Below, piece by piece: positions 8,811-64,000 of a stretch of DNA of 64,000 nt (its first letter is position 1; each line of letters starts with the position of its first letter). The notes beneath the pieces are model-generated. The model made no database searches. It was not told where the DNA came from and was given only the letters and a program-made list of their open reading frames with translations. The stretch is from Lysobacterales bacterium. GTDB lineage: Bacteria > Pseudomonadota > Gammaproteobacteria > Xanthomonadales > SZUA-38. The stretch is from the NCBI GenBank assembly GCA_045106555.1, contig JBGCET010000035.1, positions 3,551-67,550 of the forward strand, written 5' to 3'. Made by a program: the position numbers and the translations under genes.

Positions 8811-8870
8811 GGCGCGGTATAGGGTTTTCCCTATCAGGTTTTGAGAATTCTCCATGGTAATTTCGATTCC

Positions 8871-9230
8871 ATGGAACTACACGAACAGGCACAGGCCATT
8901 GCCCGAAAACTCCACATGGTCAACGACGCTGATCAACTCGGTCGGCTACAGGATCAACTGCTTTCCATGGTGCTTAGCTGTGCCCATTGGCGTCGCTCCC
9001 TGAACCCGGGACGAACGTTAGGCGGGCTCACTGCAAGCCACCTGGCGTTAACCAGCAAAGAGCGCATCGCCGCGCGTAAAAAGCTTCTTGAGGACGCCCA
9101 GCTGGACGTCTATGAGTTTTCTTTGGTGGCCAAGACTGGGCCGTCGGGAGCCGTGGTAACTCAGGCGGTTTGTCTGTCAAACCCGTCGATGGATGCCAGC
9201 CAATTTGTCGGCGTGTCGCTGAGCGGTTAA
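8871..9230 (+). CDS. Hypothetical protein (119 aa), directly downstream of the TIR gene
   Basis: ORF 8841..9230 opens on TTG; the first ATG is at 8871. No recognisable motif. Same strand as the TIR gene and about 30-60 nt after its stop. Confidence 0.35.
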   Translation: MELHEQAQAIARKLHMVNDADQLGRLQDQLLSMVLSCAHWRRSLNPGRTLGGLTASHLALTSKERIAARKKLLEDAQLDVYEFSLVAKTGPSGAVVTQAVCLSNPSMDASQFVGVSLSG

Positions 9231-11648: not shown

Positions 11649-12328
11649 ATACCCTATCGCGATCTGCGGTGATTTCCGCGTTAATCAAAAAAGACCTCGC
11701 CATTATGAAAGTACCGGCCATTTGCTACTGGCTGGCGGGACTGGCCGCCATTGGGCTGGCGATGGTTTTCGGCGATTCCAGCGGCACCGTGGCGTTCATT
11801 TTGTTTGTCTCGGCGCTGGTGGCAACGGGCCTTCATGCCGCTATGCAAACGGTTTCCGAGGAACGCCGTGCTCAGAACCTGCCGTTCATACTGAGTCTTC
11901 CCATTACCATTACCGACTACACCATCGCCAAGATGGGGGCCAACCTGCTGCTGGGCGGCGGTATCTGGTTATTGCTGTCGGCGGCCAGTTTTGTGATCTT
12001 CCTGGGTGATTCGGTGCCCCATGGCCGGGCGCCCTACATGATTATTCTGCTGGTGCAGATACTGCTGGCCTACATTGTGGTGTTGGTAACCAGCTTAGTG
12101 TTTGAGGGCTTGGCGGCCACCATGACCGCCATAGTGGGAGCGAACCTCGGCAGTCAGGTGCTGCTGTGGACCATCGCCGGTCTGTACGGTGTTCGCAGCA
12201 CGATCAATGGGTCAGAGGTGGTCTGGAATAGTACCTACCTCACCATCATCTCGGTGCAGATTGCCGTGTTAGTCGGGCTGATCGCGCTGACATTTTTTGC
12301 CCAATCTAGAAAAACCCGATTCATCTAG
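11645..12328 (+). CDS. Integral membrane protein, probable ABC-2-type permease partner
   Basis: 227 aa with about 6 hydrophobic segments. Its start overlaps the ATPase stop (ATGA at 11645..11648). Confidence 0.55.
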   Translation: MNTLSRSAVISALIKKDLAIMKVPAICYWLAGLAAIGLAMVFGDSSGTVAFILFVSALVATGLHAAMQTVSEERRAQNLPFILSLPITITDYTIAKMGANLLLGGGIWLLLSAASFVIFLGDSVPHGRAPYMIILLVQILLAYIVVLVTSLVFEGLAATMTAIVGANLGSQVLLWTIAGLYGVRSTINGSEVVWNSTYLTIISVQIAVLVGLIALTFFAQSRKTRFI

Positions 12329-22778: not shown

Positions 22779-24140
22779 TCATTCAAAACCGTTGCTAAAT
22801 ACCGTGTCGGGTCGAGTAAGAATCAGGTCTTGAGTAATGCTGGCGTTTGGCGCCACTTGAGCAATGGTGGCTTCGCCGCCTTGGAATTCATCGGTTAGAA
22901 CCCGCAGTGACAAATTCTCCGCCCCCGATTGTCCCGTCGCCGTCTGTAGCACCACAATGGAATAGCTGCCGTCCGCCGGGTCGCTCACGGTGGCAATGTT
23001 GTCACTGGACAGAATGAACAGGCCACCCACCGGCGCGTTGCTGCCGGCCTCGAGAACCTGCCCGGAAATAGTGGCCAACGGTGCACAAACAAACTGGGCA
23101 TCAATGGGTTGAAAGGTATAGCTGTAGGTCGCCGTTTGCGGGGCGGTTGGACAATGGCGAACGCGAAACAGAAACTCTGCCGGTAGCTGCAGCGTGGTTC
23201 CGGCCGGAGCCGTCGTGCCACAGGCGCCCAGCACATCCGTTGCGCTAACGCCCGGGTCAGCAAGTCTAGCGGATGGGAACGTCTCAAAGATTGGCTGAAA
23301 CCCCGGTGTATCGGAGGTGACAGTGATGAAGAACGGGAAATTGTCGGAACTGCAGCCGGTGTTTTCCGCCAGTTCCCAGTAAATCCAATCTTCGTCCCCC
23401 GGGGTTAGCGTGTGTGACTGGATTTGGCCCTCAAGGGCGTTGGGGAAGCGCGATGCGAGTTGGGGTTGGTCATCAATTTCGAACCCATCGTCAACGCCGT
23501 TGGTGGCGTTCTCATCCACCGCAAAGACAAAATTGGCAATGGCAATGTCGTCACCGCCGGTGTCTTCATCAAACCGCAGGCCGAAAAAATCCACCTCACT
23601 GACGATGCCCACAAACGTATTGGTGCTGGCGCCCAGGTCGGGCATGGGTAATATTTCGATCACGGCGCCACCGGAGTCCAGCAGGGCGATGGCCTCACCC
23701 GCGGTGCCATTGGTATCGCGCAGGGTGAATCCAAAAATTCGCAGCGGCTCACCACTGGTTACCGAGATCACCCAGTCGTCGTTTTCAAAATTATCCAGAT
23801 CACCGATAGATAATGCGTTATCGAAATTAGGCAAGTTTCCGCCGCCTTCATCGTCGTCGAAGGTTATGCCGCCGCCTTCAATGGCGGTGAGGGTAAAGCT
23901 GCGGGATAAGCCGGTATTGGCTTGATCAAAGGTCAATGTGCTGCCGCCAACACCGGAATTTGGGTTCAGGGCTATGGGTATTTCCGACGCCAGTGCCACG
24001 CCTGCGGCGTCCGTTATCAGCGTTTCCACCCGCGTACCCGCATTTTGGTCGAAACGAAGTCGATCCACGAGTAGTTGGGCGCCAGATGCCTGCAGTGCGC
24101 TGAGCATCAGAGTAATGGTGACGAAGAGTTTTGCTGGCAT
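22779..24140 (-). CDS. Exported multidomain protein of unknown function (PPC-like and CarboxypepD_reg-like segments) ending in VFSNGFE
   Basis: ATG at 24140 gives the signal MPAKLFVTITLMLSALQASGA; the maximal ORF starts on GTG at 24170. Acidic Gly/Asp-rich N-terminal half. PPC-like segment LTPGDEDWIYWEL. CarboxypepD_reg-like segment ISGQVLEAGSNAPVGGLFILS..DGSYSIVVL. Internal DGFE at 23478..23489. Confidence 0.65.
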   Translation of the reverse strand: MPAKLFVTITLMLSALQASGAQLLVDRLRFDQNAGTRVETLITDAAGVALASEIPIALNPNSGVGGSTLTFDQANTGLSRSFTLTAIEGGGITFDDDEGGGNLPNFDNALSIGDLDNFENDDWVISVTSGEPLRIFGFTLRDTNGTAGEAIALLDSGGAVIEILPMPDLGASTNTFVGIVSEVDFFGLRFDEDTGGDDIAIANFVFAVDENATNGVDDGFEIDDQPQLASRFPNALEGQIQSHTLTPGDEDWIYWELAENTGCSSDNFPFFITVTSDTPGFQPIFETFPSARLADPGVSATDVLGACGTTAPAGTTLQLPAEFLFRVRHCPTAPQTATYSYTFQPIDAQFVCAPLATISGQVLEAGSNAPVGGLFILSSDNIATVSDPADGSYSIVVLQTATGQSGAENLSLRVLTDEFQGGEATIAQVAPNASITQDLILTRPDTVFSNGFE

Positions 24141-24209
24141 ATTGTGGCGGAAAATTCCTTTAGAGCTCACGATAAGTGTAGCAGCCGATTGCGCTGGCTA
24201 AGCGATGGG

Positions 24210-29519: not shown

Positions 29520-31592
29520 TTATTGAAGACTGCGCAACAGCGCCTGAATATTCCGGTTAGTGGGAAACGCCGACGCCAACTGCTGGGCGGTGGTACGGGC
29601 GGACTCCAGCTGACCCGCGTCCCGTTGCAGGGTGGCTAGCGCCCAACCAATGTCAAAGTCATCGGGAAAACGTTCACGGGCCTTCGCCATCAGCGGCAAC
29701 GCAGCAACAGCGTGGCCCGTTGAATTGAGCGCAATGGCGTAGACGTAGATGAATCGAGAATTGTCGGGTGCCAGACTCGAGGCCGTTTTTAACGCGCCCA
29801 AAGCGTCTGGAATACGTTTTTGACGAACCAGGAACAAGCCATAAGCGTGATGGGCTAAAGCCATCCCAGGCAGCACTCTCAGCGCGAGTTGGTAAGCATC
29901 CTCGGCGGCGTCAACATTGCCGGAGCGAGATTCAAGGTCTGCCAGTGCCAGCGCATTGCCTGGCAAAAAACCGTTGGAACGAAGACTGACTCTTGCTTCA
30001 TTCAGGGCGCCACGTAACGCCAGCGAACGCTCCATCGACAGCCGATTCTCGTCAGCTGCCAGCGCATTTGCTGCCTGGATCCGTACCGCCAGGATCGGGT
30101 CGGTCAGCAGCGGGCTGGCGAGCGCGACGCGGCTGGCCGGAGCAAGGGAAGTCACAGAACGTAAGGCGCCAATGCGCAGCAGCGGATTGGGGTCGACTAG
30201 GTGCAGCTCCATGACCTGGGTGGACATGACGCGGGCATCCAACATCGTGAGTGCGGTTGCCCGCACAATGTCTGGTGTTTGCGTATCACTGGCAACAGCA
30301 GCCAATCGCGCGTTGGCCCCTGGGGCGCCTGACCGTGCAGCAGCAAAAGCGCTGCCGAAGTGATCAGGTCGAGTGCCTGCGCCTGGTATTGCAAAGCTGT
30401 GATCTCGCCGGTTGTCAACGCCCATATAGGTGCGGCTTTTCATATGGCACTCCACACAGTTTCCCGCGGTTTCTGCCTGCGAAGACCCATGGTCCAGTTG
30501 GCCAAATCGGGCCGGCAGGTGGCATTGGGCACAGACGCCATTGGGGTTTGCCGGCGTTTTCAGTAGGGTGCTGTGGGGGTTGTGGCAATCGCTGCAGGTC
30601 ACACCGGCCTGATACATGCGGCTTTGCAGGAATGACCCGTAGACGTAAACTTCATCCCGAATCTGGCCGTCATCAAAGTACAGGTTGGCCTCCAGTAATG
30701 CGGGCTGATGGGTGTTGGTGAGAGGCTCGCCAAAGCGGTAATCCACACTGAGGGTACTACGCCTGGCATGACATCGGCCGCAGGCTTCCACTTGTTTAGG
30801 TGAGGCTGCGGGGAGGGAGCGCTGGGCGATTGCGGTATCAGCGTTCATGAGCCATTGAGCCTGGCCCCGGTCGTTCAGCGACAGGGCAAGGCCCAGGTCA
30901 GGCCGGAATTTTTCGGTCCGTGCCTGAGTCACGTGATCTGAGCCGGGTCCATGGCACCCCTCGCAGCCCACAGACACCTCCGAAAACGTTGTGTCAAAGG
31001 TGTTTTCGACGGGGTCGTAGTTCACCTTAAGGTTTGTCGAGTGACACTCGGCACACATCCCGTTCCAGTTAAACATGGGGCCGGCCCAATGCAGCTCATC
31101 GCCCGCCGGCGTGGTCTCATCCAGCAGAAGATCAAACCAGCGTTGTCCGCCCTGATCGGCGGTCCGGCTGTCCCAAGCCACGGTTAGGGCCTGTTTGCGT
31201 CCACCCGCGGTATCCACCAGATACTGTTGCAGCGGATACACGCCAAAGGTGTGGGTGATGGTAAATGTCTTTGGTTCTCCGGCAGTGTCGAACGTTCTGA
31301 TCTGGTATTGCCCGCCGTTGGTTTTGAAGTGAATCTCACCGGCGGAACTTTCGAAGGAATGATTGGCAAAGTTACCTAAAACGGATTGAGGTGTGGCCAC
31401 CTGCATCGCTAACTGATGATGGGAGCCTTGCCATTGCTCGTACGCATCGCTATGACACTCCCCACAAACTTCGCTGGTAACAAATTCCGCCGCCCACCCG
31501 CTGATGGGGCCAGCCAGTGCAAGTAGCCAAACCGCTAGCCATCGAGCTTTTCCCGGGAGTATTGTCTTACGCAAACTTATCGATAGCCTCAA
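29520..31592 (-). CDS. Periplasmic multiheme c-type cytochrome (7 CXXCH) fused to C-terminal TPR repeats
   Basis: Heme motifs CGECH, CAECH, CEGCH, CGRCH, CSDCH, CAQCH and CVECH fall in the first ~400 aa. The C-terminal ~280 aa are TPR-like. TTG start at 31592 (a second TTG at 31574). Signal WLAVWLLALAGPISGWA. Confidence 0.8.
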   Translation of the reverse strand: MRLSISLRKTILPGKARWLAVWLLALAGPISGWAAEFVTSEVCGECHSDAYEQWQGSHHQLAMQVATPQSVLGNFANHSFESSAGEIHFKTNGGQYQIRTFDTAGEPKTFTITHTFGVYPLQQYLVDTAGGRKQALTVAWDSRTADQGGQRWFDLLLDETTPAGDELHWAGPMFNWNGMCAECHSTNLKVNYDPVENTFDTTFSEVSVGCEGCHGPGSDHVTQARTEKFRPDLGLALSLNDRGQAQWLMNADTAIAQRSLPAASPKQVEACGRCHARRSTLSVDYRFGEPLTNTHQPALLEANLYFDDGQIRDEVYVYGSFLQSRMYQAGVTCSDCHNPHSTLLKTPANPNGVCAQCHLPARFGQLDHGSSQAETAGNCVECHMKSRTYMGVDNRRDHSFAIPGAGTRPDHFGSAFAAARSGAPGANARLAAVASDTQTPDIVRATALTMLDARVMSTQVMELHLVDPNPLLRIGALRSVTSLAPASRVALASPLLTDPILAVRIQAANALAADENRLSMERSLALRGALNEARVSLRSNGFLPGNALALADLESRSGNVDAAEDAYQLALRVLPGMALAHHAYGLFLVRQKRIPDALGALKTASSLAPDNSRFIYVYAIALNSTGHAVAALPLMAKARERFPDDFDIGWALATLQRDAGQLESARTTAQQLASAFPTNRNIQALLRSLQ

Positions 31593-51629: not shown

Positions 51630-52511
51630 ATGCATACTTGGGCACAGTGGTTGTTTTACATCGTATTTGCGGGTCAGATCTGGCTCGTTTCTCGGTACTT
51701 TCCGCGCAGGCAGGAGGCGCGCATGCGCCATGTGCTGGAAACTTATCCACCCGAAGAGTTCCCTCGCCTGTATCCCCGCTCGCGGGACTACTACGTGGGG
51801 TCACTGCTCGCTTATCGTTGGGCGAACAAGGCCATCTCGGCGTTGGGCGTTGTGGTGTTACTGGCCCTGGTATTTGTTGTGGACCACGCCAACTTTGCTG
51901 ACGATGGATATGTTTCTGAAATCTGGCCACTGCTGTTCGCAGCCGTTCAGTTTATTCCTCTTATCGCGCTTGAGATTTCCGCCTGCGGTCAGTATCGAAT
52001 GATGCGTCGGCTAAACACTGCCAGCGTGCGCCGAGCGCCACTGGTGCCCAGACGTCTCAGCGATTTTGTGTCGCCGTTAACATTGAGTGTCGCCGTGGTT
52101 TTGATTGTTGCCGCCGTGGGGTTTGATGCGGCGCTCAATGGCGCTGATCATGGTGGCATCGCGGGCGCTTTCACCCGCTCGTTAGGTCTAATCTTTGGCA
52201 ATGGCGTGATCGCTATCTCCGGCGCCATGATGTTGCGAGGGCGCAAACCCAACCCCCATCAAAGCGCTCACGATCGGGCGCGGCACATCTCCGCTGCGTT
52301 AACCTCGTCGGTTTGCGTCAGCATTGCGCTCAGCGTATTTCATATGGCCGGCACCCTGGATCGGGCGTTCGACCTGGATTACCTGGACGCCACCATCAGC
52401 AGTTTGTACGTGGTGATTATTGCCAGCCTGTCCATTGGGTATTTGATGCAGAAGCTGACCCTTCGTCCCTCGGACTTTGAGGGCTACCGAGACGACCCTA
52501 CAAGCGCCTGA
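51630..52511 (+). CDS. Integral membrane protein, unknown function (co-transcribed with the YtrA-like regulator)
   Basis: 293 aa, AGGAG RBS, about 7 hydrophobic helices. Starts 9 nt after the regulator stop. Confidence 0.55.
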   Translation: MHTWAQWLFYIVFAGQIWLVSRYFPRRQEARMRHVLETYPPEEFPRLYPRSRDYYVGSLLAYRWANKAISALGVVVLLALVFVVDHANFADDGYVSEIWPLLFAAVQFIPLIALEISACGQYRMMRRLNTASVRRAPLVPRRLSDFVSPLTLSVAVVLIVAAVGFDAALNGADHGGIAGAFTRSLGLIFGNGVIAISGAMMLRGRKPNPHQSAHDRARHISAALTSSVCVSIALSVFHMAGTLDRAFDLDYLDATISSLYVVIIASLSIGYLMQKLTLRPSDFEGYRDDPTSA

Positions 52512-52554
52512 AGGGTCGTGTGCTGTCGCGAGAATCTTTTAACCAGAGCGAAAA

Positions 52555-52896
52555 ATGACCACAAGCCAAGCAAGTGAAATGCCCACTGTTGTGATTGTTA
52601 CGTTTCCCAGCGTCTCGACGATGTCGCAAGGGGATCTGCGTCGTTTGCTGGAAGAGACGGGGCCGAAATACACCGCTATCGAAGGCCTGAAACGTAAGTA
52701 CTTTATCTCCGGTGAACAATGCGGAGGCGGCGTGTACGAATGGCGCTCCAGGCCTCTGGCTGAGCAGTTTTATACTGAAAGCTGGTACAGCCAGATGCAC
52801 GATCGCACCGGTACCAGGCCTACAGTTACCTTTTATGATGCCCCGGCCATCGCAGATGGGATAAGCCACCAGCTAGAAATTTTTGTGAGTGATTGA
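52555..52896 (+). CDS. YdhR-like small monooxygenase-fold (dimeric alpha/beta barrel) protein
   Basis: 113 aa. The YFISGEQCGGGVYEWRSRPLAEQFY pattern resembles the YdhR family. Confidence 0.45.
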   Translation: MTTSQASEMPTVVIVTFPSVSTMSQGDLRRLLEETGPKYTAIEGLKRKYFISGEQCGGGVYEWRSRPLAEQFYTESWYSQMHDRTGTRPTVTFYDAPAIADGISHQLEIFVSD

Positions 52897-52961
52897 CCAC
52901 CAATCGGCACATCCTTATGCCGGCTCAAATTCATTAGGCTTAGGCCGACTCGTGTCCTGAG

Positions 52962-55900
52962 CTACTCAAATCCATCGCTGAACACAAATTCTCCTTCCGG
53001 TACCAACTGCTGGTCTGCCACATTGGTATCCTGGCCTGCATCAACGTCAAGTCCGGGTACCGTCATGGGCGCGTAATCCATTCGGGTAAATTCCAGTGCG
53101 TAGTTGCCTGGCTCCAAACCTGACAACACATAGTTGCCGCTGTCATCGGTTAACGCAGGTTTTTGCAAGGGATCGTCCTTAACCGAAACCAGGATATTCG
53201 TCAGGCCTTCATTTCCGCTCAGGGTGATTCGCCCGGTGATGCGGCCCAGAGTGCCCGCAGGCCACTGGGTAATGTCATCCACATACCGAATCGATACGTT
53301 GCCACTGGGGTCACGGTACTGAACGGTCACGGTGCGGATGGTGGGTACCGATACCCCATCGAAATTCACCGTCCATTGAGACACGTAAGGCATCCAGGGG
53401 CCAAAGCGATCTTGATCCAGTCGAGCGCGGAATTCGGCGGTTGCTGGGTCTTCGTTATAGAGGGCGTTTTCCACCACCGCTGAATTTCCATCGGTACGCA
53501 GGTGATAGTCGGCGATCGAAACCGAGCCTAGTGGCGCGTTGGCGTCAGCGAGCGCAAAGCCTGAGAAAATTCGACCAGGAGCCGACAGCGAGCCGTCGGC
53601 CATTTCACCCTGAAACTGGTAGAAATACTCCTGGCCAATGTCTACCCGTCGATCCACATATTCCTGGGTTTGATGGGCGCCGGAATCAAAAGTGGTCAGA
53701 GGCAGTAACGAATCTTCGGTAAGGCCCCGCTTGAGTGTCAGATTGTCGAAGCGGCCGTAGGCAGGTAGTTTTACGGTCACTGCGTTATCGGTCAGTAGCG
53801 CTTGCTCCTCGTGCTCTGTACGTTGGGTGACCACATGGCCGCCCAACGGCATCGGCAGGGCGTCGTCGGTGGGGTCCAGCGGGTTACGTCCACCGCGCAC
53901 CTCCGAGCCGTCCATTTCGCCACCGCCATCGGTGTCGGTCAGGCAAGGACGGGTACCGCGGGTGAACTCAAAAAAGTTGCTTAACATGTCGTCGTCGCCG
54001 TCGACTGTGGCGTCATTTACATCGCCGTCCAGGCAGCTATAGCGGTCTTCATAAGAATCGGGCAGCTGATCGCCATCACGATCCGGCGGCGTGGTTTGTT
54101 GAACGACGTGGGTCACTTCATGCGCGATCAATTTTCGGCCGTCTGCCAGTTCGGCATCCAGCTGCACTTGGTAGGTGCCCCTCTGCCCGCTGCTTCCGTC
54201 GTCGGGTAAGCCGGTTGCGCTGCCGCTGTTGGATAGGAAGGAAAAGTTGATGGAGCGGGACCCAGAGCCTTCTTCCACGCGTAAAGACTCGGTTTGGCCC
54301 GTTTCTTCGCTGTCCACCGGCACGTTAATCACCTGCGTGTCGCCGTTGGGCATTTCGATGGTGGCGATTAATGAGCGTAGCGGTTGTAACCCCTGGCTGT
54401 CGGCGACAGAAAATCCGACACCAATCGGTTGGCCAACAACAAAACCCAGCACAACGTCATCGTCTACTTCCGGCAGAAAAAACCCGGTTTGCGCGTTCAG
54501 CCCGTTGGCATCAGGGATCGACACAGCGACCTCAGCCTGCTGGTTATTGGCGGCGGTGGCGGCTGTTACCTCCAAACGCCAAGTGCCTTTCACCAGGGCG
54601 CCGATAAAACTCACGGCATTACCCTCATCGCTGCGCGCCACATCGAGGTCACGGGCCAGCACTTCGCTGCCATCGGGTCGGAACAACCGCACTGACTGTA
54701 TGGAGGGCGGGGTAAACAGCGAACGAGCCGAACGCACGCCAATCACGGCGGGTGCGCTAGTATTCTCTCTGATAGGAATATCCAAACTGATGACATTGCC
54801 GACATCCAAGGCCAGTTGCTCACGCTGAATTTGCGTGCGCCCTTCAATTACGTCAGCAATCTGACCCAGGGCGGCGTGCAGATCCAGTACCTCGGTAAAC
54901 AGCGGCTGAACGTCGGCATAACGAAACTCGCCGCCGGTGGCGCGGGCAATTTCCGCCAGCAAGGCCTGGTCGGCCAACGGGCCCAGGGCGACGGTGTGGA
55001 CGATCATCCCTGAGGCCACGATGGTGTCGCGGATGTCCCGCCACAGGTCCTCTTCATTTTCCGGGCCGTCAACAACCAACACCGTGTGCTGAGCCCTTAG
55101 CGGCTCACCATCCGATAAAAACATTTGGTAGGCAGTGCGCAGTCCATCGCCGATAGCGGAGGTTCTGCCGGCGTCAGCGGACAGTCCGTTCAGCGCGACG
55201 CGAATGCGGTTGCGGTGGGTGGCGTCGGCAGCGGCTAACGGCGCCAGCGTGCGTCCATCATCATTCGGTTCAGTACCATCACCGCTAAAATCTACCAGGC
55301 CCGCGGCGAGGACGCTGTCCAGCTGTTGCAACAGGTGCAGGCCGGCGTCAGTAACGGCAGCGAGTTTTGAACCGTCTGGCGGGAATGCCATGGTGGAAGA
55401 GGTATCAATGGCCAAAATAACCTCGGTCGGCGGCGTATCGATGTAGGCCACCGCGTTGTCGATGGTTTGAACGGCTTCGCCGGCGCGGATTTCCAGCGGA
55501 TACGCACCGTCCGCCGCCTGAGGCGGCACCAACAGTTGAAGCAGATAACCATCGCCGTCAGGCACCGCCTGCAAAACCTGAGCGGGCTGATCGCCAATGC
55601 TGGCGTCGAACTGCAGCGCCGATAATCCGCTGACGGTTTTTCTGCCGTCAATCCCGGTGCTGGTGGGAACCACCGACACGGCGATGGTGCCTGGGTTGCT
55701 CGCGCTGCCGCCATAGTGTGGACGACTCTCGCCTGCCAGTGGGAAATCTACGTCGAACGTGGATTGGGGTGATTGACACGATAGGGTTACGTTGCCGATC
55801 CAGAACCCCGCCACCGGGGCGATCACCAGGTAGAGTTCGTCAAATCGATTGCTGCGTTGAAAGGTGGTGAGGGTCCAGTCCACGTCGTACTTTTTGTAAA

Positions 55901-57101
55901 ACTCGCGTGGGCGATCATTGCGATTGATCACCACGCCGTAGCTGGCCACCGCATCCGCGCCTGATGTTGTGGTGTCCGCGGCGTCGATTTCCAGTTGAAT
56001 GATCTTGTTGGCCGGACAGCTGGAAATATCGGCCTTCAGGTAGCGTGCACCAAAATATTGCACCCCTACCAGCTGAGTCACCTCCTGACCCTGGCCAATG
56101 GTCCCCAGGTCAAAATCTATCGTCACGTCGTTGTAGTTCATCATGTTAAAGCCACCGACGGGGTCTTCATCTCGGTAGGAGTATCGATTCACAAAACCGC
56201 TGCTGGCGTTACTGAGGTCAAAGTCCTTCACCAGGTTGGCGATGGTGAAATTCTGGAATGCGCTGTAGAGGCTGTGGGACTCGTCAAATAGCTTGATGGT
56301 GCTATCAGTGATCGACATGGCATCAGCTCCCTGCAGCCCTGCGGCAACTGCCTGTCCCCACCAAAGGGTTAGGAAATCAACCCCTAAGCCAGGCTCCTGC
56401 TCGTTAATGCCGTACTGCTCCGTGAGGTAGGTCCACCATAGCGCTGCGTCATAGCTGGCCAGCCAAAGGGATTGATTGGTGTCGCCAAGGTAATTGTTCA
56501 CTTGGCCCAGATAAGGCGCTGTGCAGCTGGCGCTGGGGAGCAGGTCTAAAAGGTTATAGACCTTGTCTTGCATCGCTCGAGCCTGGCCCTCGCAAACCGT
56601 GTTGCCCCAGAGGCTGCCGCATCCGCTACCACCGATCAGTTCGGCGTAGGCAAACTCCACATGGTGGAAGAGCTCATGACCGACGATCATGTTGATACAG
56701 CTGTCCGATTCGTCTGCGTAGACTGACGTGGGTAGCAGAATGCGAGAGAGGGTCGCGAAGCCGTTGTCACAGCCGCCGTTACCGTCGGGTTCTTTGCAGT
56801 CGTAAATGTCCAGCGATTTGGGCTGCTCGCTGAAATACGGGGACGCAAACAAGAAGTTGGCAAAGCCCTCGTGGTGTCCGCGCGGATTACCGGGACTGCT
56901 GGCCCCGGTTCGATCTAGCGCCAAAGCCGCCGCAAAGGCCTTGCTGGAGGGAAAAAAGTCGTCAGATGCCGGGTTAGGGTTCCACGATACCTCGTAGCCT
57001 TCGTTCAAAGTGGTTGCGGTGGACGGCAGTGGTGGTGGGGTGTTGGGCGCAAGACCCGTCATTGTCAGTCCAAACAGCAGTGCAACGGCTTGAGTATTCA
57101 T
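52962..57101 (-). CDS. 1379-aa exported multidomain protein: N-terminal HEXXH metalloprotease-like region, VWA domain, Ca-binding TSP3-like acidic repeats, CarboxypepD_reg-like domain, VFSDGFE terminus
   Basis: ATG at 57101 gives the signal MNTQAVALLFGLTMTG. HELFH at 56664..56678 with a Glu about 25 residues downstream. VWA MIDAS-like VILAIDTSSTM. Acidic repeats DRDGDQLPD, TDTDGGGEMDGSE, NPLDPTDD. ITGRITLSG..DDSGNYVLSGLEPGNYALEF. Ends FVFSDGFE-stop. Confidence 0.75.
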   Translation of the reverse strand: MNTQAVALLFGLTMTGLAPNTPPPLPSTATTLNEGYEVSWNPNPASDDFFPSSKAFAAALALDRTGASSPGNPRGHHEGFANFLFASPYFSEQPKSLDIYDCKEPDGNGGCDNGFATLSRILLPTSVYADESDSCINMIVGHELFHHVEFAYAELIGGSGCGSLWGNTVCEGQARAMQDKVYNLLDLLPSASCTAPYLGQVNNYLGDTNQSLWLASYDAALWWTYLTEQYGINEQEPGLGVDFLTLWWGQAVAAGLQGADAMSITDSTIKLFDESHSLYSAFQNFTIANLVKDFDLSNASSGFVNRYSYRDEDPVGGFNMMNYNDVTIDFDLGTIGQGQEVTQLVGVQYFGARYLKADISSCPANKIIQLEIDAADTTTSGADAVASYGVVINRNDRPREFYKKYDVDWTLTTFQRSNRFDELYLVIAPVAGFWIGNVTLSCQSPQSTFDVDFPLAGESRPHYGGSASNPGTIAVSVVPTSTGIDGRKTVSGLSALQFDASIGDQPAQVLQAVPDGDGYLLQLLVPPQAADGAYPLEIRAGEAVQTIDNAVAYIDTPPTEVILAIDTSSTMAFPPDGSKLAAVTDAGLHLLQQLDSVLAAGLVDFSGDGTEPNDDGRTLAPLAAADATHRNRIRVALNGLSADAGRTSAIGDGLRTAYQMFLSDGEPLRAQHTVLVVDGPENEEDLWRDIRDTIVASGMIVHTVALGPLADQALLAEIARATGGEFRYADVQPLFTEVLDLHAALGQIADVIEGRTQIQREQLALDVGNVISLDIPIRENTSAPAVIGVRSARSLFTPPSIQSVRLFRPDGSEVLARDLDVARSDEGNAVSFIGALVKGTWRLEVTAATAANNQQAEVAVSIPDANGLNAQTGFFLPEVDDDVVLGFVVGQPIGVGFSVADSQGLQPLRSLIATIEMPNGDTQVINVPVDSEETGQTESLRVEEGSGSRSINFSFLSNSGSATGLPDDGSSGQRGTYQVQLDAELADGRKLIAHEVTHVVQQTTPPDRDGDQLPDSYEDRYSCLDGDVNDATVDGDDDMLSNFFEFTRGTRPCLTDTDGGGEMDGSEVRGGRNPLDPTDDALPMPLGGHVVTQRTEHEEQALLTDNAVTVKLPAYGRFDNLTLKRGLTEDSLLPLTTFDSGAHQTQEYVDRRVDIGQEYFYQFQGEMADGSLSAPGRIFSGFALADANAPLGSVSIADYHLRTDGNSAVVENALYNEDPATAEFRARLDQDRFGPWMPYVSQWTVNFDGVSVPTIRTVTVQYRDPSGNVSIRYVDDITQWPAGTLGRITGRITLSGNEGLTNILVSVKDDPLQKPALTDDSGNYVLSGLEPGNYALEFTRMDYAPMTVPGLDVDAGQDTNVADQQLVPEGEFVFSDGFE

Positions 57102-57248
57102 GGATGCTGCCCTCAAATTCAGGCGGCAGTTTTTGGCGTGCCGCAATGTTCGCTAGCCCGACGATTGAGCGGGAGGGCGATTTCTGATTTGAGTGTGGAG
57201 CAGCGCGAGAGGGGTGTTTACCCAAATTATTGGGGGTCGGAGAAGTTT

Positions 57249-59105
57249 TTAGTTGGGTAGGCTAAGCAAGACCTGAGTGCCTCCCTCTGGACTAGGGCAG
57301 CGGCTGAACTGACCGCCAACGGCTGTCGCCCGGCGTTTCATCGTCCGAGTGCCATACCCCTGAGAGCTTGGATTGTTGTCGTTGTCGAGTTCAGGGGCGC
57401 CTTTTCCATCATCCCGAACGGTAATCTGGGTTTCTTCGGCGTGCTGCTCCAAGGTCAGCCACAGGTGCTGAGCGGCCGCGTGTTTCACAACGTTCTGAAC
57501 GGCTTCTTGAACAAATCGCAACACGTTAATTGTGTGCCCGGGTGCCATTGGCAATTGTTCAATCTTGCTGTCCACCGTCCAGTGCAACGTTATGCCAGCA
57601 GATCTCAATAGCGGCTCGTAACGTTCTTTTAATCTCGCCATGGCGAGCACCAGGTCTTCCCCCGCAGGCGTCAGCGCGTCCAACACCATTCTTAAATCGG
57701 CAAGAATGGCGTCCAGTTCCTCACCCACGGCGCGGGGGTCCAACTCTCCGCGCCGGTTGGCAGCAATGAGGCCAACTAGCTGACCGCCCACGCCGTCATG
57801 CATATCGGCCATGATGCGTTGGCGTTCCTGGTACAGCGCAATCTGTCGCTCAGAGGCTACCCGCTGGCGACTTTCCTGCTCCAGCGCTTCGGTCTTGGCA
57901 TCCAGTCGGCGGTTAAGTTCGTCGTTGAGATCCTGGGAATTGAGCAATGCCCGGGCGATGCGATGAACCAGCACGCCGCCGTAACCTGCGGACATAAACA
58001 CAATCGCGTAGTGAGAGAGATAAAAATCGCGAATCAGCCAGTGCTGTACATCAAACAGCACGGCCACATCGTGAAGGCCCAATAGAAGTCCCAGCAGGCT
58101 GCCAACGAGCAGCCAGTGCAGGTAGACGTGGTGGCGCCGTATGAGCGCGACGGCTAACAGCGAACTGACGTATATGATCCCCAGCAGTACCATGGGCATG
58201 CTGGTCATAAAGGTGAGGTTGGCGAACTCGCTGTTGCGCCCGCTTAGCACTAGCGCCAGACCGGCGCCAAACACGGCCAGATAGAACACCCCCAGAGCAA
58301 TTTCCAACCAGCGCCTCTTGATCTCCAGAAAGCGATGCGTGAAGCAAACAAAGGCCCACAAGAACATCGCCCTGGCGAGCAGATAGGACCAGTTGGCGAG
58401 GTAGGACAGAGCAATCTGGCGGTGGCCAACAAAGCTGTACAGGTAATAGCTGAAGGCCAGGAAGGCCAGCGCCAGCCAGCCGTATTCTGCCAGCTGGGGT
58501 CTAACTACCCAGATGGTTGCCATAAATAATCCCAGCAAGACAGAGGCCGCCAGTGCCGCCAGCAGGAGATCCTGGCGAAAGAAGTCGAAGATAACGTACA
58601 CCGGTTCCAGTCGCTCCGCGGGGCCGACGTAGAAGGTGCTGAGCATCATGGTAGTACTCTCGGCCTTGAGGTTGATGCGCAGTTCATTGAGGCCGCTGGG
58701 CTTAAGCGTTTTCGGCGGTACCGGAATCCATTGGGGCTGGTATTTGTAGCTCGTTCGGAATGTGGTGGGCGGGTTGTGGACCAGATGGTCGTTAACGAAA
58801 ATCTGCGCGGTGGAGTTCATTCGCGGAATAAATACTGCGATGTCTTGACCGTCGTCAGGCCCTTCAAACTGATGGATAAAGGGGGTGGTCTGTGGTGGGT
58901 CGTCGACCCGGCGAACCAGGCCTAATTTTTGTGCGGCACGGTCGGGATGTTCGACGTCGGTAATTTGGGTGACCTCGAACTCAGCCAACTGATGAAACGC
59001 GTTACCCAGATAGCCAATGGCGCCCAGGTACGCCAGTGCCAGTATCCAGGGGGTGGCAATCGCAAGCGTGTTGAGCGCCGTCGCAGGAAGAGTCTGCGGT
59101 TTCAA
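57249..59105 (-). CDS. Sensor histidine kinase (extracytoplasmic domain + 7 TM region, HisKA_3 / HATPase_c)
   Basis: The TTG start overlaps the response-regulator stop (TTGA). About 170-aa periplasmic domain, then about 7 TM helices. H-box MADMHDGVGGQLVGL. ATPase region VRDDGKG..GYGTRTMKRRA. Confidence 0.8.
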   Translation of the reverse strand: MKPQTLPATALNTLAIATPWILALAYLGAIGYLGNAFHQLAEFEVTQITDVEHPDRAAQKLGLVRRVDDPPQTTPFIHQFEGPDDGQDIAVFIPRMNSTAQIFVNDHLVHNPPTTFRTSYKYQPQWIPVPPKTLKPSGLNELRINLKAESTTMMLSTFYVGPAERLEPVYVIFDFFRQDLLLAALAASVLLGLFMATIWVVRPQLAEYGWLALAFLAFSYYLYSFVGHRQIALSYLANWSYLLARAMFLWAFVCFTHRFLEIKRRWLEIALGVFYLAVFGAGLALVLSGRNSEFANLTFMTSMPMVLLGIIYVSSLLAVALIRRHHVYLHWLLVGSLLGLLLGLHDVAVLFDVQHWLIRDFYLSHYAIVFMSAGYGGVLVHRIARALLNSQDLNDELNRRLDAKTEALEQESRQRVASERQIALYQERQRIMADMHDGVGGQLVGLIAANRRGELDPRAVGEELDAILADLRMVLDALTPAGEDLVLAMARLKERYEPLLRSAGITLHWTVDSKIEQLPMAPGHTINVLRFVQEAVQNVVKHAAAQHLWLTLEQHAEETQITVRDDGKGAPELDNDNNPSSQGYGTRTMKRRATAVGGQFSRCPSPEGGTQVLLSLPN

Positions 59106-59752
59106 AGAATGCCCAGTTCCCGCGCTTTGTGTACCGCCTCGCCCCGGGATCGAGCGGCCAGCTTGCTGTAAATTTCTTGAGCGTAGGTGGACACCGTGTT
59201 GAACGCGATGTCCATTTCTGAAGCGATTTGCTGGTAGGTCAGACCTCTAGCCAACAGGTTCAGCGTTTGTTGCTGACGTGGTGGCAAAAAGGTCGAAGGC
59301 TCTTCCCTTGGGGCAGGCTCAGCCAACCGAATATGACTCATGATGCATTGGGCCACCGAAGGGCTCAGCGGCGGCTTGCCGTCGACAATTTCAACCAGAG
59401 CGGTGCGCAGATTGGTTTGGGTGTCCTGCTTCAGAAGATATCCCTGGGCCCCTAATCCGATCGCGTTGACGATGGTTTCCTCATCGCTGAATCCCGACAA
59501 AATAACCACCCGGGCAGGGCGGACTTCACTGTGTTGGTCCACCAGGAGTTCCAGTCCGTTACCGTCGGGCAACCCCACGTCCAGCAAGATCAGCTCAGGT
59601 TGGTTAATCGCCTGCAGTCGGCGGGCGTCAGCCAGGCTTGCGCAGGCCCATAATGAGCCTTCGCTAACCAGGTCCGCCAGGGATTCCCGCAGGTGACTTT
59701 GCAGCGCGGGATCGTCTTCTACGATCAGCAGGCTGTTGATGGGTGAGCCCAT
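59102..59752 (-). CDS. Response regulator, NarL/LuxR family
   Basis: ATG at 59752 shares 1 nt with the upstream stop (TAATG). Receiver LLIVEDDP..LILLDVGLPDGNG. HTH LTYQQIASEMDIAFNTVSTYAQEIYSKL. Confidence 0.85.
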   Translation of the reverse strand: MGSPINSLLIVEDDPALQSHLRESLADLVSEGSLWACASLADARRLQAINQPELILLDVGLPDGNGLELLVDQHSEVRPARVVILSGFSDEETIVNAIGLGAQGYLLKQDTQTNLRTALVEIVDGKPPLSPSVAQCIMSHIRLAEPAPREEPSTFLPPRQQQTLNLLARGLTYQQIASEMDIAFNTVSTYAQEIYSKLAARSRGEAVHKARELGIL

Positions 59753-61272
59753 TAAGGCAGGGCGCTCTTGGCGGCGTTGCTTGCACAATTTTCAGCGCCG
59801 GTCAGCCGGCTTAAGGGAATCACGCCCTGGTTTGCGCCATCGGTGCTGATGAAGGTCATTTGGCCATGTAAACAGGAATCGAAGCTGAGCTCAGCGGTTC
59901 CCCAGCTTTCCACGGTGGCCGCGGTTGCTTGGGCGGGGCGACCGCCAGTGGTGACCAGCAGTTCAAGCGAGGCTGTGTCGTCGGCAATGGGGCCCTGGCC
60001 AATCAGCCAGCGTTGGTTGCCGCGGTCGTCGTAGGTGTACCAGTAAGCCAGAGCTTCACCCCGGCTTTCCAGGACCTCAAGATTCACGCCTTGGGCTGGT
60101 GACTCCGGGTCGTACCATGAGCCATTGAGCCGGGCGCTAAGTGGTTCGCGTTGTCCGCTCACAGTGATTGCTGGAAGTATATGTTCGCGCAGAGCGGTGC
60201 CGATGCCTGGGCCGTCGTATTGGTAGTCTTCAGCAAGCTGCACTACCACCAGGTCGGCCTCTGGGATCATCATGATGAATTGACGCCCGTATCCGTTGGC
60301 GTAATACATGTCGAAGGTGCGGCTCAGGTCATCGGTGATGGGTTGAATCCACCACTGATAACCGTAGCCCGAGCCGGGAACGGAAAACACTTCGGGGTCG
60401 CTGGCGGGTGTGCTGTAGGTTTGGACGGATGCATCAATCCAGTCCTGGGAGATCAGTTGTTGGCTATCAAAACGTCCTCCCTGGGCCATCATCAGACCGA
60501 TGCGGGCCATGTCCGGTAACGTGAGCCACAGACCAAACCCCAGTGGCGCATTACCCAGGGGAAAGCCTTCTTCGGCAATGCAGATTTGGCGTGAGTCCAG
60601 GCAGTTGATTCCCCAGCGAATGCGGCTGATGCCCAGGGGCTCGAACAATGCCTGCTGTGCATAGGCCTGGGTGTTCAGCCCAGTGGCATCAAGCACAATG
60701 CCGGACATTAGCCCGGAAGCGCCGGTGCTGTACTGGAAGGTTTGTCCCGGCGGTTCAGCCATGGGCCAGGTGAGCACCGTTCTTAACCAGTCCGTTGAAC
60801 CCAGCATGGTGCTGATGGGATGGTCTTCGCGACCATAGGGCCACTCTATCCAGTTGTAGCCGTGGCGCTGTTGCAGCACATGCTCGATGGTAATTTGCTG
60901 ACGTAGCGGGTCTTGCTGAATTTGCGGGTATTGAGTGAAGGCACTGTTGAGCGGCGCGCTGGTGCTGATGAGACTATCGCGCACCAGGGTGCCGATGAGA
61001 ATTGAGCCCACGCTCTTGGTCACAGAGTAAATCGGCAGCGGCTCGCCCTGGTAGCCGCGGAAATATTCGCGATAAACCTCCTGCCCGCCGCGCACCACCA
61101 TCAGACCATCGACGCGCCCCAGTTCTCCGGTTGCCAGCCTTGCAGTGAGGCTGGCCAAAAGCGCCTCATCCATACCTTGAGAGGCAGGCGGGACCGCTTG
61201 CCACTCAAATGCGTAACCCCCACTAGTGAGAGCAAGAAGCAACGCTAAGGTGGTGAAAACTTTGCCCGTCAT
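59752..61272 (-). CDS. Exported serine hydrolase (class C beta-lactamase / PBP-like fold) with extra C-terminal module
   Basis: Signal MTGKVFTTLALLLALTSGGYA. S-x-x-K motif YSVTKSV. YSTGASG. The last 123 aa form the shared module. Confidence 0.8.
   Translation of the reverse strand: MTGKVFTTLALLLALTSGGYAFEWQAVPPASQGMDEALLASLTARLATGELGRVDGLMVVRGGQEVYREYFRGYQGEPLPIYSVTKSVGSILIGTLVRDSLISTSAPLNSAFTQYPQIQQDPLRQQITIEHVLQQRHGYNWIEWPYGREDHPISTMLGSTDWLRTVLTWPMAEPPGQTFQYSTGASGLMSGIVLDATGLNTQAYAQQALFEPLGISRIRWGINCLDSRQICIAEEGFPLGNAPLGFGLWLTLPDMARIGLMMAQGGRFDSQQLISQDWIDASVQTYSTPASDPEVFSVPGSGYGYQWWIQPITDDLSRTFDMYYANGYGRQFIMMIPEADLVVVQLAEDYQYDGPGIGTALREHILPAITVSGQREPLSARLNGSWYDPESPAQGVNLEVLESRGEALAYWYTYDDRGNQRWLIGQGPIADDTASLELLVTTGGRPAQATAATVESWGTAELSFDSCLHGQMTFISTDGANQGVIPLSRLTGAENCASNAAKSALP
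59755..60123 (-). other. C-terminal module copy 2
   Basis: GSWYDPESPAQGVNLEV...YWYTYDDRGNQRW...TTGG...WGTAELSFDSCLHGQMTF...RLTGAENC.... Confidence 0.6.
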
Positions 61273-61343
61273 CTGCCCATTATAGCCCGCCTTCGACCAA
61301 TGGACGTGTGACAGAAATCTCGACGCTTTTGCAGGCTGGTGGG

Positions 61344-62918
61344 TTACCTAATTGAAATGCAGCCCTCGCCCAATAGGCGGGTGATCGAAAGGGTTTGTTC
61401 TACTGGCGAACCCGCGCTGCGCTCGGTCAGCTGAAAGGTGACGGTGCCGTTGGCGCAATCTTGAAACGTGAGGTTCAGCGTGCCGGCCGGGCTGAAATCC
61501 GTTTCGCTGTCGAAATCGACCGCGCGGAGTGTGGAAAATCCGCCGCCGGCAGATTGGAATAAGGGCACGCTCAGCGTTGAAGCCAGATCCCAAGACTCCA
61601 CGTTGACACTGCCCGCGTAAAAATTGGCCTGTCCTGCGTCATCGTAGGTATACAGCACTAACGCCACATCGGTGGACACAGTATCTTCACCATCGCGAAC
61701 CATCAGGCTTAATCCATGCCCGGGCAGGTCCGGCGGAAACCATAGGCCATCGAAGGTGAGGTCCACCTGGGTGTTGAAGGCGGCGGAATGGGTCAGCGCA
61801 CCCTCCAGCGCAAATAGCCGTTGATCTCCTCGGTCGATCCAGCTGAAGCGGGGGTCGTTGTCGTAACTGAAGCGACCAGACTTAATCCGATGTTCACCCA
61901 GCAACAGGCCGTCAATGCCAATGAAGCTGCCGTCTTTTATTAACGAAAAGTGCACATGGGGGGCCCGAGACAGGCCGCCCTGGCAAACCGCAGTGATCCG
62001 GTCATCGGCGTATTTGGCCAGATCCTGACCTTTTTTCACTGATTGGCCCGTTTCCACCACTATGTCTTCCAGGTGGTAGTACTGGGTGCTCCAGCCGCTG
62101 GGGTGGGAGACGCGCATGATGCAGCGGCCATACACCTGAGCGATGCCGTCATGGGCCGCCAAAATACGGCTGCCTGACGTGTCCGTATCCCACGGCTGAC
62201 GCCAGTCCTGGCTGAAATCGATCGAGGACATAGGGTTGCCGTCGTCAGCGCCGGTATAGGTATGGGTGCCGTAAAACTCCCAGTCCTGGTTGTAGGCGAA
62301 CGGTAAATCCATTAGCGGGCGTGGTCCCGCTTTGGGTAGTGGCTGCAAAGACAGTCCGGCCAACTTTGCCAGGTTTGAGGCGTGTTTCGTCAACTCAGGC
62401 AGGTCATTTTCCATTGAGCGCTTTTGGCTCTCGTGGTGTTTCGCGGGCTTTGAGAGCTGGCTGGCCAAATTGGCAGCAAGGTTTTCGATTTTTCTGTCGA
62501 CAGTCTCGCTGGACTTGTCGGTCATGGACCTTAGCGACTCTTCTACTAACGCCAATACTGCCAGTGGGCTGACACTGTGAAATCCGGCCTGAAATAACAT
62601 TTCGTCGGCCCATGGCGTGAGGTGTGGGCGATGGGCGTCAACAAAGGCGTGAAAATCCAGCGCGGCATAGCGGCGATCCAGTAACAGCGTTTGCTGATCT
62701 GACTGAGCCACAGTTGGGTTGTTGGACAAGGTCAGAAGACACAGGACCGTGAGAATTCCAGTTTTCCCGATGAGTGTGCGGCGAAACAGAGTGCTGGCTA
62801 TAGAATTAATATTGATTGCGTTTTTCAGAGCATAGCGGATGTCAGGGGTTTTTTTGCGGCTTTTGCGGCGGCAACAGCCGCAGCGGTTGACCGTTCCCAA
62901 TATAGTCCGGCACCTCAT
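61344..62918 (-). CDS. Exported M23-family metallopeptidase with extra C-terminal module (start codon uncertain)
   Basis: M23 motifs [26 protein letters not shown]. The signal-like segment [29 protein letters not shown] begins near 62789. The only ATG opening the ORF (62918) lies 77 nt inside the upstream gene, so the true start is probably a non-ATG codon below 62842. Confidence 0.75.
61347..61748 (-). other. C-terminal module copy 3
   Basis: [17 protein letters not shown]...[12 protein letters not shown]...SAGGGF...[18 protein letters not shown]...[11 protein letters not shown]-stop. Confidence 0.55.
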
Positions 62919-63321
62919 TCACGGGATGAATGGTCACGCTGATGTTCGCCTCACCGGCGCGCAGATGCCGAATTGCCTGATAGTCGTCGGAAAACCAAAA
63001 GCCCCGGGCCGCCTCCACACAGGGAAATCGCGCACCCACAATAAACTGATTGTCTGGCCATTCGCCCTCAAAGGTCTCGCTGGGCCGGGTCGCAAACTCG
63101 TAGTACCCCTGTTGTTCGGGGTAGGTGTTCAGTTTTCGCAGGGCCTGGCCATAAGCTTTCAGCGAGTCCTTGCTGTTTAGCTGGCCGATCACAAGCATCA
63201 GAACCGGCTCATTGCATTGATCGGTTTCTGGCGTGTGAACAGGGCTCTGGGCAGATACGCAGGCTGATATGGCCGCCATCAAAAAAACGAGCAACCACGT
63301 CCAACACTTTTGACCAGCCAT
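62842..63321 (-). CDS. Exported DUF1330-domain protein
   Basis: Signal [20 protein letters not shown]1330-like body ([15 protein letters not shown]...[28 protein letters not shown]). The start shares 1 nt with the upstream stop (TGATG). Confidence 0.6.
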
Positions 63322-64000
63322 CAGTGTGTATCGCCCTCGCTAGCATTGGGATTGTCTTCGATGTATTTCTTGAAAACGGTCCAGGACGTCTCGTTGGGTC
63401 GGCTGTCGTCCAACGGCGGTGGCGTCCAGTATTCCGGATAGCGTTCGTCCATAATTTTTACTAACTGCTCAGGCAGTTCGTCGCGCTCAAAGGTGCTGAA
63501 ACCTGTAGCGTTAAAAATCATCCAGCCTGGGCGGTCGCCCATTTTCAGCCAGGGCAGCCATTTGGCCACACGCACCCATCCCAGATGAGACTGCCCCAGG
63601 GACTTTGTGCGGTTATTGAGCAGCCGCTTACTGTTGTAGAAACTGTCGAAGATTTCCATGGCGTGGTAAGTGCCGCCCACGTACGGTTGATAATCGCCGC
63701 CCAAAGGATTGGTGTAAAACAGCGGTATCTCGGAGGAGCGGGCAGTCACCTCGCCGTAGCGGCGAAGCTTCATGGACAGGTTGGAGCTGCCGTCTTCTTC
63801 GAACTCAAAGCGCGGGCCGCGCATGTTCACCGGGTCGTTGGCAACGTGCAGCACCTTGATGGTTTCGCCGGTCCAGGGGTTGTCCCAGGTGTCGATGACC
63901 TCGCCGGTGGCCGGGTCCATGTACACCATAATTTCTCGAGATACGCTGCGGAATGAGCGGCCGCGCGTGGCGTCTTTGTCTACTCTGCACTGACGGACGT
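63321..64000 (-). CDS. DUF1838-like protein, 5'-truncated by the window edge
   Basis: The frame stays open from 63929 up to 64000 (..[34 protein letters not shown]..), so the gene starts beyond the window. The pattern [18 protein letters not shown] is DUF1838-like. Confidence 0.5.

Follow-up and report, generated by a model that had tools for sequence, protein, structure and literature searches.

We analysed a 64,000-nucleotide stretch of contig JBGCET010000035.1 of a Lysobacterales bacterium (assembly GCA_045106555.1), referred to below as the window, which ends in a run of seven open reading frames (ORFs), all on the minus strand, encoding in the direction of transcription a DUF1838 protein, a DUF1330-family protein, an M23 metallopeptidase, a PF00144 serine hydrolase, a response regulator, a sensor histidine kinase and a giant secreted protein with a zincin-like domain and a von Willebrand factor A (VWA) domain (Table 1). 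The original prediction had regarded this run as a regulated, exported toolkit for attacking or remodelling cell walls, and would be refuted by a lack of synteny in relatives. The seven genes were confirmed, at the positions given there, by the ORF listing of the window, as were their identities by Pfam, and all of the junctions were found when the sequence was read: the DUF1838 stop and the DUF1330 start have one nucleotide in common (TGATG, 63321), the M23 gene is separated from the hydrolase by 71 nucleotides (61273..61343), the hydrolase stop and the regulator start have one nucleotide in common (TAATG, 59752), the regulator stop overlaps the TTG start of the kinase (TTGA, 59102..59105), and 147 nucleotides (57102..57248) precede the ATG of the giant gene at 57101, from which 1,379 amino acids are read. 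In the source contig (L001), where the DUF1838 gene, whose 5' end lies outside the window, encodes 299 amino acids, the same-strand run actually comprises eight genes, with a GDSL-lipase autotransporter upstream of DUF1838. Seven genes on the same strand are statistically unremarkable in a bacterial chromosome. The junction at the start of the M23 gene is less easily read: from the DUF1330 stop (62842) as far as the core of the M23 signal peptide there is no ATG, GTG or TTG, so that the gene either overlaps DUF1330 by 59-77 nucleotides, the ATG at 62918 giving an overlap of 77, or has a non-canonical start.

Table 1. Features of the window, with positions counted from its first base, and the evidence on which each assignment is based.
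Feature	Position	Strand	Basis
DUF1838 gene, 3' part	63321..64000	-	Pfam PF08894, E=1.9e-49; match begins at profile position 52; frame open to base 64000
DUF1330-family protein with N-terminal signal/lipobox-like sequence	62842..63321	-	Pfam PF07045, E=2.5e-8
LasA-type (M23A) prepro-metallopeptidase with predicted C-terminal calycin-like barrel	61344..62918	-	Pfam Peptidase_M23, E=3.1e-10; start codon uncertain
M23A catalytic domain (residues 198-358)	61845..62327	-	Residue-by-residue alignment to LasA 3it5
Barrel module of the M23 protein (residues ~385-524)	61347..61766	-	Alignment with the hydrolase copy
Leader/promoter-like region and first ~19 hydrolase codons	61216..61326	-	Kept in L030 though the hydrolase body is gone
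PF00144 class-C beta-lactamase-fold serine hydrolase with signal peptide and C-terminal barrel	59752..61272	-	Pfam, E=1.1e-27
Barrel module of the serine hydrolase (residues ~378-498)	59779..60141	-	AlphaFold2 model
NarL/LuxR-type response regulator	59102..59752	-	Pfam Response_reg and GerE
Sensor histidine kinase: N-terminal transmembrane helix, periplasmic jelly-roll, 7TMR-DISM-type seven-transmembrane block, HisKA_3, HATPase_c	57249..59105	-	Pfam
Periplasmic sensor domain of the kinase (residues 34-182)	58560..59006	-	AlphaFold2, predicted local distance difference test (pLDDT) 88.2
Conserved non-coding block directly after the kinase stop	57170..57248	-	About 88% identical to L030 (62/70 first aligned bases)
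1,379-amino-acid secreted protein: HELFH...E zincin-like N-domain, VWA with DxSxS metal ion-dependent adhesion site (MIDAS), Asp-rich Ca-type repeats, CarboxypepD_reg, C-terminal FSDGFE	52962..57101	-	Pfam, NCBIfam
F-S-D-G-F-E tail of the giant protein	52965..52982	-	F..DGFE invariant in the 79% and 33% identical homologues
M64-family peptidase with third C-terminal module copy (at about 4441..4761)	4387..6378	-	tblastn, E=5e-12; Pfam Peptidase_M64, E=4.9e-43

Orthologues of the kinase (43-81% identity) were examined in nine distinct contexts (the window, L030, L031/L041, L032, L033, L034, L035, L036 and L042/L043), the tally of which was confirmed by tblastn of each protein of the cluster against 91 loci. 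The regulator and the kinase stand together in all nine, the giant HExxH-VWA gene is found in three and DUF1330 in two, and the M23 gene, the orthologous hydrolase and DUF1838 each occur in one context, the window alone. In L030, the closest relative (kinase 81% identical), a GDSL-autotransporter, a 689-amino-acid gene on the opposite strand, DUF1330, the regulator, the kinase and a giant gene of 1,379 amino acids are followed by the window's own four downstream genes; this neighbourhood holds no DUF1838, M23 or hydrolase gene, apart from a remnant of the hydrolase. The giant, regulator and kinase genes are followed by a major facilitator superfamily transporter in L031/L041 (kinase 55%), and in L033 (53%) the pair is followed by a PF00144 gene (640 amino acids, 12137..14059, directly 3' of the kinase), which was considered as a recurrent link and rejected, having no significant similarity to the window enzyme. 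The remaining contexts (L032, L034, L035, L036 and L042/L043; 46-51%) have the regulator and the kinase only, among wholly different neighbours that in one case include the adjoining dcw cluster; the neighbours of the pair are different in each of the more distant contexts. Four hydrolase orthologues (L037-L040; 44-63% identity) likewise have unrelated neighbours, with this regulator, this kinase and any M23 gene all absent nearby. The seven-gene order is therefore not syntenic in the eight other kinase contexts, the outcome that the original prediction had named as refuting it, and the orthologues of the hydrolase are located elsewhere.

The comparison with L030 nevertheless bears on the age of the link between the hydrolase and the regulator. 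The two loci are collinear on both sides, with about 76% nucleotide identity in flanking coding DNA and 73% amino acid identity between the DUF1330 proteins, and 3.07 kb of the window (62846..59775), containing the M23 and hydrolase genes, correspond to just 216 bp in L030 (blastn). These 216 bp align to positions 61326..61216, that is, to the spacer between the M23 gene and the hydrolase and the first ~19 hydrolase codons, with a local score of 62 against 27.4 for shuffled sequences (standard deviation 3.8, maximum 41). Positions 9229..9354 of L030 form a 41-codon ORF in which signal-peptide codons are joined to the last ~19 codons of the hydrolase: its N terminus resembles the hydrolase signal peptide, its end (...CDNHAANRALP, then stop) resembles the hydrolase C terminus (...CASNAAKSALP, then stop), and its stop overlaps the start of the L030 regulator as TGATG. 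Because this remnant keeps the overlap, the coupling of hydrolase and regulator is older than the split between the window and L030, and the body of the hydrolase was deleted afterwards, in the L030 lineage. An insertion of the hydrolase, together with the M23 gene, into the window lineage had been considered and was revised for the hydrolase once the remnant was found; the M23 gene may have been either lost in L030 or gained in the window lineage. The two loci differ in other genes as well, with DUF1838 replaced by the 689-amino-acid gene on the opposite strand, an amine oxidase and DUF418 pair present in one of the two, and DUF7010 not in L030. A horizontal-transfer island was rejected, since the GC content of the region is flat (0.56-0.60), with no compositional island.

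The hydrolase leader is the only conserved non-coding DNA 5' of the regulator in L030, and the conserved spacer may be the promoter or leader of a two-component operon of which the hydrolase would be the first gene in the window. It contains a TATAAT at 61279..61284, 6 nucleotides ahead of the hydrolase ATG, which a consensus promoter scan did not call; across 52000..64000, promoter and terminator scans gave counts at chance level and none within the two gaps. As the hydrolase follows the conserved leader and its stop overlaps the regulator start, it probably shares one transcript with the regulator and the kinase, and its expression would then always accompany that of the signalling pair. The link is also shallow and dispensable, given that L030 has lost the hydrolase body and kept the leader and the 41-codon remnant with its overlap. 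The second conserved non-coding block follows immediately on the kinase stop. Between the window and L030 its identity is about 88%, compared with about 76% in flanking coding DNA, and it includes at 57216..57234 a near-palindrome, CCCAATAATTTGGG, that is unique within the window; the block with CCCAATAATTTGGG may be a candidate operator or promoter for the giant gene.

Within the signalling pair, the regulator scores above threshold for Response_reg (59 bits versus 30.2) and GerE (49 bits versus 23.5), as expected of a NarL/FixJ-type protein, and is NarL-like in NCBIfam (95.7 bits, under the equivalog cut-off). For the kinase, HATPase_c is above threshold (46.3 versus 26.4 bits), with 7TMR-DISM_7TM (PF07695; 25.9 versus 29 bits) and HisKA_3 (18.9 versus 24 bits) both just under the Pfam threshold; PF07695 was recorded in five kinase orthologues, and the H-box DMHDGVGG is invariant in 20. 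The periplasmic sensor domain is predicted, from its AlphaFold2 model, to adopt a jelly-roll fold of the sugar-binding type, and its Foldseek matches are GH2 sugar-binding domains, BcsB and CBM35 (E 5e-4 to 2e-3, TM 0.4-0.6). Receptors of the 7TMR-DISM type are linked with carbohydrate sensing, which this fold fits, and Anantharaman and Aravind reportedly described such receptors with 7TMR-DISMED2-type extracellular domains. The kinase is like 7TMR-DISM receptors such as RgsP in having a PF07695-matching seven-transmembrane block preceded by a periplasmic jelly-roll, the block scoring just below threshold, and unlike RgsP-type receptors in its output through HisKA_3 and a NarL-type regulator. 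In Rhizobiales, RgsP works with an M23 protein (PMC6107284).

The M23 gene of the window encodes an enzyme of the LasA type. Its catalytic domain matches LasA (PDB 3it5) with E=3.5e-38 (phmmer), and also 6ik4, a pseudoalterin-type elastinolytic protease, and 8af1, an M23 peptidase. The zinc ligands H219, D234 and H323 correspond to H23, D36 and H122 of LasA, the catalytic H282 and H321 to H81 and H120, and the disulfide pair C266/C312 to C65/C111, so that the His-Asp-His zinc site and the two catalytic histidines that define M23A are complete. A hydrophobic signal-like segment and a pro-region of about 130 amino acids precede residue 198, the start codon being uncertain. LasA (staphylolysin, Pseudomonas aeruginosa), pseudoalterin (Pseudoalteromonas sp. 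CF6-2) and the Lysobacter beta-lytic protease, all of MEROPS subfamily M23A, resemble the window protein in catalytic residues and cysteine pair, and probably in signal sequence and pro-region, and the window protein differs in its extra C-terminal barrel, which the matched solved LasA-type chains (173-182 amino acids) do not have. Since every zinc and catalytic residue is kept, a lytic role is plausible, and the enzyme may plausibly be bacteriolytic or elastinolytic. Pseudoalterin is a weapon against Gram-positive bacteria, secreted by the type II secretion system and induced by glycine from peptidoglycan (PMC6962226).

The serine hydrolase is a different matter. With 97.6 bits for PF00144 (cut-off 27) it belongs to the serine beta-lactamase-fold hydrolases, and S83-x-x-K86 and Y181 are invariant across 33 orthologues taken from the protein database, a family of 36-62% identity with the same catalytic-plus-barrel build that includes cultured Marinicella species and carries the JGI label 'CubicO group peptidase'. 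A scan of species-representative genome contigs for the hydrolase returned barrel-module matches only and no close catalytic-domain orthologue. Among solved structures, the closest are Lsa45, a class-C-related serine hydrolase, NylB (nylon-oligomer hydrolase) and Pab87, none of them above 68 bits, and NCBIfam gave only a sub-threshold match to 3-succinylated cholic acid synthase; comparison with PDB and NCBIfam found no close homology to a characterised penicillin-binding protein or DD-peptidase. The SxxK/Tyr core is common to the window enzyme and to Pab87 of Pyrococcus abyssi (2qmi; E=2.4e-6), the D-aminopeptidase DAP, Lsa45 and NylB, and Pab87 and DAP also bear C-terminal barrel domains. 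In contrast, the window hydrolase is secreted rather than cytoplasmic and self-compartmentalising, shows low sequence similarity to any solved member (best 68 bits) and has a barrel that is a separate mobile domain, found on unrelated proteins too. Of the proposal that both hydrolases act on peptidoglycan, the part concerning the M23 enzyme is plausible, by its LasA type and intact active site, and nothing found here links the PF00144 enzyme to this substrate.

As predicted, the two enzymes have in common a C-terminal module of ~120 amino acids (27% identity over 135 amino acids, E=1e-7), a third copy of which is found on the M64 (IgA-peptidase-like) protein 55 kb away from the cluster. An AlphaFold2 model (25 sequences, pLDDT 91.1, eight strands) points to an eight-stranded, calycin-like beta-barrel, with weak Foldseek matches in the PDB to nitrophorin, avidin, lipocalin and designed barrels (E>=4.6e-3, TM~0.5). 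Two cysteines are invariant in the module alignments, consistent with a disulfide formed outside the cytoplasm. The module is matched by no Pfam or NCBIfam model, and the source annotation of ten small module proteins that we checked gives either no name or 'hypothetical'. An exhaustive search of 1.84 billion proteins with a profile of four module sequences gave 8,139 representatives of clusters of 50% identity at E<=1e-3, of which 3,678 also reach E<=1e-10. This search replaced a word-indexed one with a three-module alignment, which had returned two hits, one with an adapter-like end; protein P0002 was kept out of the profile as it ends in CLLYTSPSPRD, which looks like a translated sequencing adapter.

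Among the 150 top-scoring representatives listed, nearly all have a tandem pair of modules, and in these and in loci L019-L022 the module is N-terminal, internal, C-terminal or in tandem; L019 5718..7778 and L021 9836..11917, for example, have two N-terminal tandem modules followed by a repeat-rich region of ~400 amino acids. Its partners in 73 representatives include FG-GAP, Kelch, CBM56, M23 (4/73), S8, M14, PKD and TSP3, and in Wenzhouxiangella metagenome-assembled genomes it follows what appears, from a reading of the sequence, to be a GH16-type glucanase. Because its position varies, where a secretion or sorting tag would be expected at a fixed C-terminal position, the module is unlikely to be an export tag. 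Nor does it address lytic enzymes in particular, as had been proposed: the more than 8,000 clusters in which it occurs include enzymes and propellers with unrelated specificities, and it may stand at either end of the protein or in tandem. The hydrolase copy is ~60% identical to the modules of its orthologues and the two cluster copies are only 27% identical to each other, which argues that the M23 and hydrolase fusions are each old and independent, with no sign of co-evolution in the cluster. In our view it is an accessory domain, widespread among secreted proteins and as yet unnamed, whose most likely role is the binding of a ligand or surface. Binding or tethering of this kind would fit the cell-bound lytic proteases of Wenzhouxiangella AB-CW3, which feeds on Gram-positive cells using cell-bound proteases (PMC7691419).

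The giant protein and its homologues in L030 and L031 (79% and 33% identical) have in common, in a three-way alignment, HELFH...E, the VWA MIDAS, the Asp-rich repeats, CarboxypepD_reg and FxDGFE. Its VWA domain passes the Pfam threshold and matches that of human CLCA1 (6pyo, E=1.6e-7), and its scores for TIGR00868 (42 bits, cut-off 901) and NF045524 (34 bits, cut-off 140) amount to a resemblance to the CLCA-like zincin-VWA family below the cut-off for membership. CLCA-type zincin-VWA proteins and the putative metalloproteases of the MXAN_6640 family likewise have HExxH...E followed by a MIDAS-bearing VWA domain; the giant differs from them in its Asp-rich repeats, CarboxypepD_reg and FxDGFE tail, and in being a bacterial protein of 1,379 amino acids. 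A match to eCIS_core/DUF4157 (HEVTH) was rejected, the motif not being conserved in the 33% identical homologue. The tail has the form of an extreme C-terminal hydrophobic-F-[SAQ]-[DN]-G-F-E with 0-3 further residues and also ends the unrelated window ORFs 119..2281 (+) and 22779..24170 (-) and, at other loci, L031 330..1769 and 4904..9214, L038 1892..2719 and L093 3385..5334, so that its bearers include an Exo_endo_phos protein, a 463-amino-acid protein of no assigned type, the giant and its homologues, and a DUF1501 protein. None of 243 retrieved proteins had a tail of this type, and a literature search on the DGFE motif returned nothing relevant. Its recurrence on unrelated secreted proteins suggests that the tail may be a sorting or processing signal.

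Elsewhere in the window, the M64-barrel gene adjoins an ORF (6474..8810, +) for a protein of 778 amino acids, possibly related to defence or signalling, in which tetratricopeptide repeats (TPR) come after a TIR domain at the N terminus (TIR_2, E=3e-25; weak ThsB_TIR). A further ORF (29520..31592, -) encodes 690 amino acids with multihaem cytochrome c motifs (Cytochrome_C7, c3, paired CXXCH) and C-terminal TPR repeats.

Taken together, we consider it likely that the run is a mosaic, in which a conserved pair of regulator and kinase, joined in some lineages by the giant gene, lies beside a lineage-specific cargo of secreted enzymes, and that it is no dedicated system of cell-wall attack. The stable unit would be the NarL-type regulator with the 7TMR-DISM/HisKA_3 kinase, which in the three closest lineages adjoins a secreted zincin-VWA protein of ~1,380-1,400 amino acids with an FxDGFE tail, and the variable cargo 5' of the pair would be the LasA-type M23A proenzyme, the PF00144 hydrolase, DUF1330 and DUF1838. 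Several observations weigh against this interpretation: (i) the sample consists of nine contexts only, mostly from metagenome assemblies; (ii) the overlaps TAATG and TTGA, together with that of the remnant, make the hydrolase-regulator link older than one genome; (iii) the hydrolase-regulator overlap may bear on translation of the regulator; and (iv) a second PF00144 gene adjoins the orthologous kinase in L033, a Lysobacterales-type metagenome-assembled genome, which is probably a coincidence, the chance of one like it being roughly 7% by a personal estimate rather than a computed test.

The alternative that survives best is a lineage-restricted kit, in which the kinase senses a prey or envelope glycan by its jelly-roll and induces the M23 enzyme, the hydrolase and the giant from one or two operons, the barrels holding the enzymes on their target. 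Short or overlapping junctions throughout the run, an intact LasA-type active site, a sensor fold like those that bind sugars and conserved non-coding blocks 5' of the hydrolase and of the giant gene are all in line with it, and there are precedents (PMC6962226, PMC12510463, PMC7691419 and PMC6107284). We nonetheless regard it as unlikely, since the linkage is not conserved and L030, which is without both enzymes, still has the regulator, the kinase and the giant; in addition, hydrolase orthologues lie elsewhere in other genomes, the barrel is not restricted to lytic enzymes, nothing ties the PF00144 enzyme to peptidoglycan, and promoter and terminator signals are no higher than chance. What stands of the regulated, exported lytic toolkit first proposed is the identity of the M23 enzyme, the export signals and a shallow operonic link; what falls is its status as a conserved system, with synteny lost and a barrel that is not lysin-specific.

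The view that this combination is undescribed was, moreover, overstated, because inducible secreted M23 predation has been published. Besides pseudoalterin (PMC6962226), Lysobacter enzymogenes has the phPLUS system, in which LssL (M23 plus SH3b), a glycine signal and the RltB/RltA two-component system operate together (PMC12510463). This is the same concept in the same bacterial order, namely, a secreted M23 enzyme whose products feed back via a two-component system; the differences are that LssL is lysostaphin-like with SH3b, compared with LasA type and a barrel in the window, where the linkage is not conserved and such regulation is putative.

Less probable still is pure juxtaposition, by which a chromosomal spot turns over genes for secreted proteins and the neighbours share no regulation. 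The heavy indel traffic between the window and L030, and the different neighbours in each of the more distant contexts, are what such turnover would produce, but with stops and starts overlapping, hydrolase, regulator and kinase are unlikely to be transcribed independently, and in L030 the regulator's only conserved 5' non-coding DNA is the hydrolase leader. That the hydrolase is a signalling accessory, a periplasmic or secreted enzyme of the PBP fold which makes or binds the ligand of the kinase and so accounts for its tight coupling to the regulator, would agree with the TAATG overlap, its retention by the L030 remnant and the second, unrelated PF00144 gene beside the L033 kinase, but is very improbable: a PF00144 neighbour is missing from seven of the nine kinase contexts, L030 does without the enzyme, this kinase does not accompany any of four hydrolase orthologues, and the L033 enzyme is not similar to that of the window.

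To conclude, the mosaic reading implies that, as a system, the cluster matters little, as it is not a conserved machine and regulated killing by an M23 enzyme has already been described in the same order. Its components are of more interest. The junction between hydrolase and regulator is a natural experiment, in which an enzyme gene was deleted ahead of a two-component operon and the leader and the stop/start overlap were kept, and this deletion remnant, the barrel domain and the recurrent C-terminal FxDGFE tail are worth carrying forward. More tentatively, and with the odds against it, the barrel, of ~115 amino acids, may represent an undescribed family that tethers secreted enzymes to a surface or substrate in Lysobacterales, Wenzhouxiangellaceae, Marinicella and relatives, the hydrolase having been captured, in the window lineage, into a glycan-sensing two-component operon; if true, a tethering barrel would explain how such bacteria keep lytic or degradative enzymes bound to the cell or to prey. 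Present on thousands of secreted proteins, including a LasA-type protease, the barrel could explain the targeting and retention of enzymes in proteolytic and predatory gammaproteobacteria.

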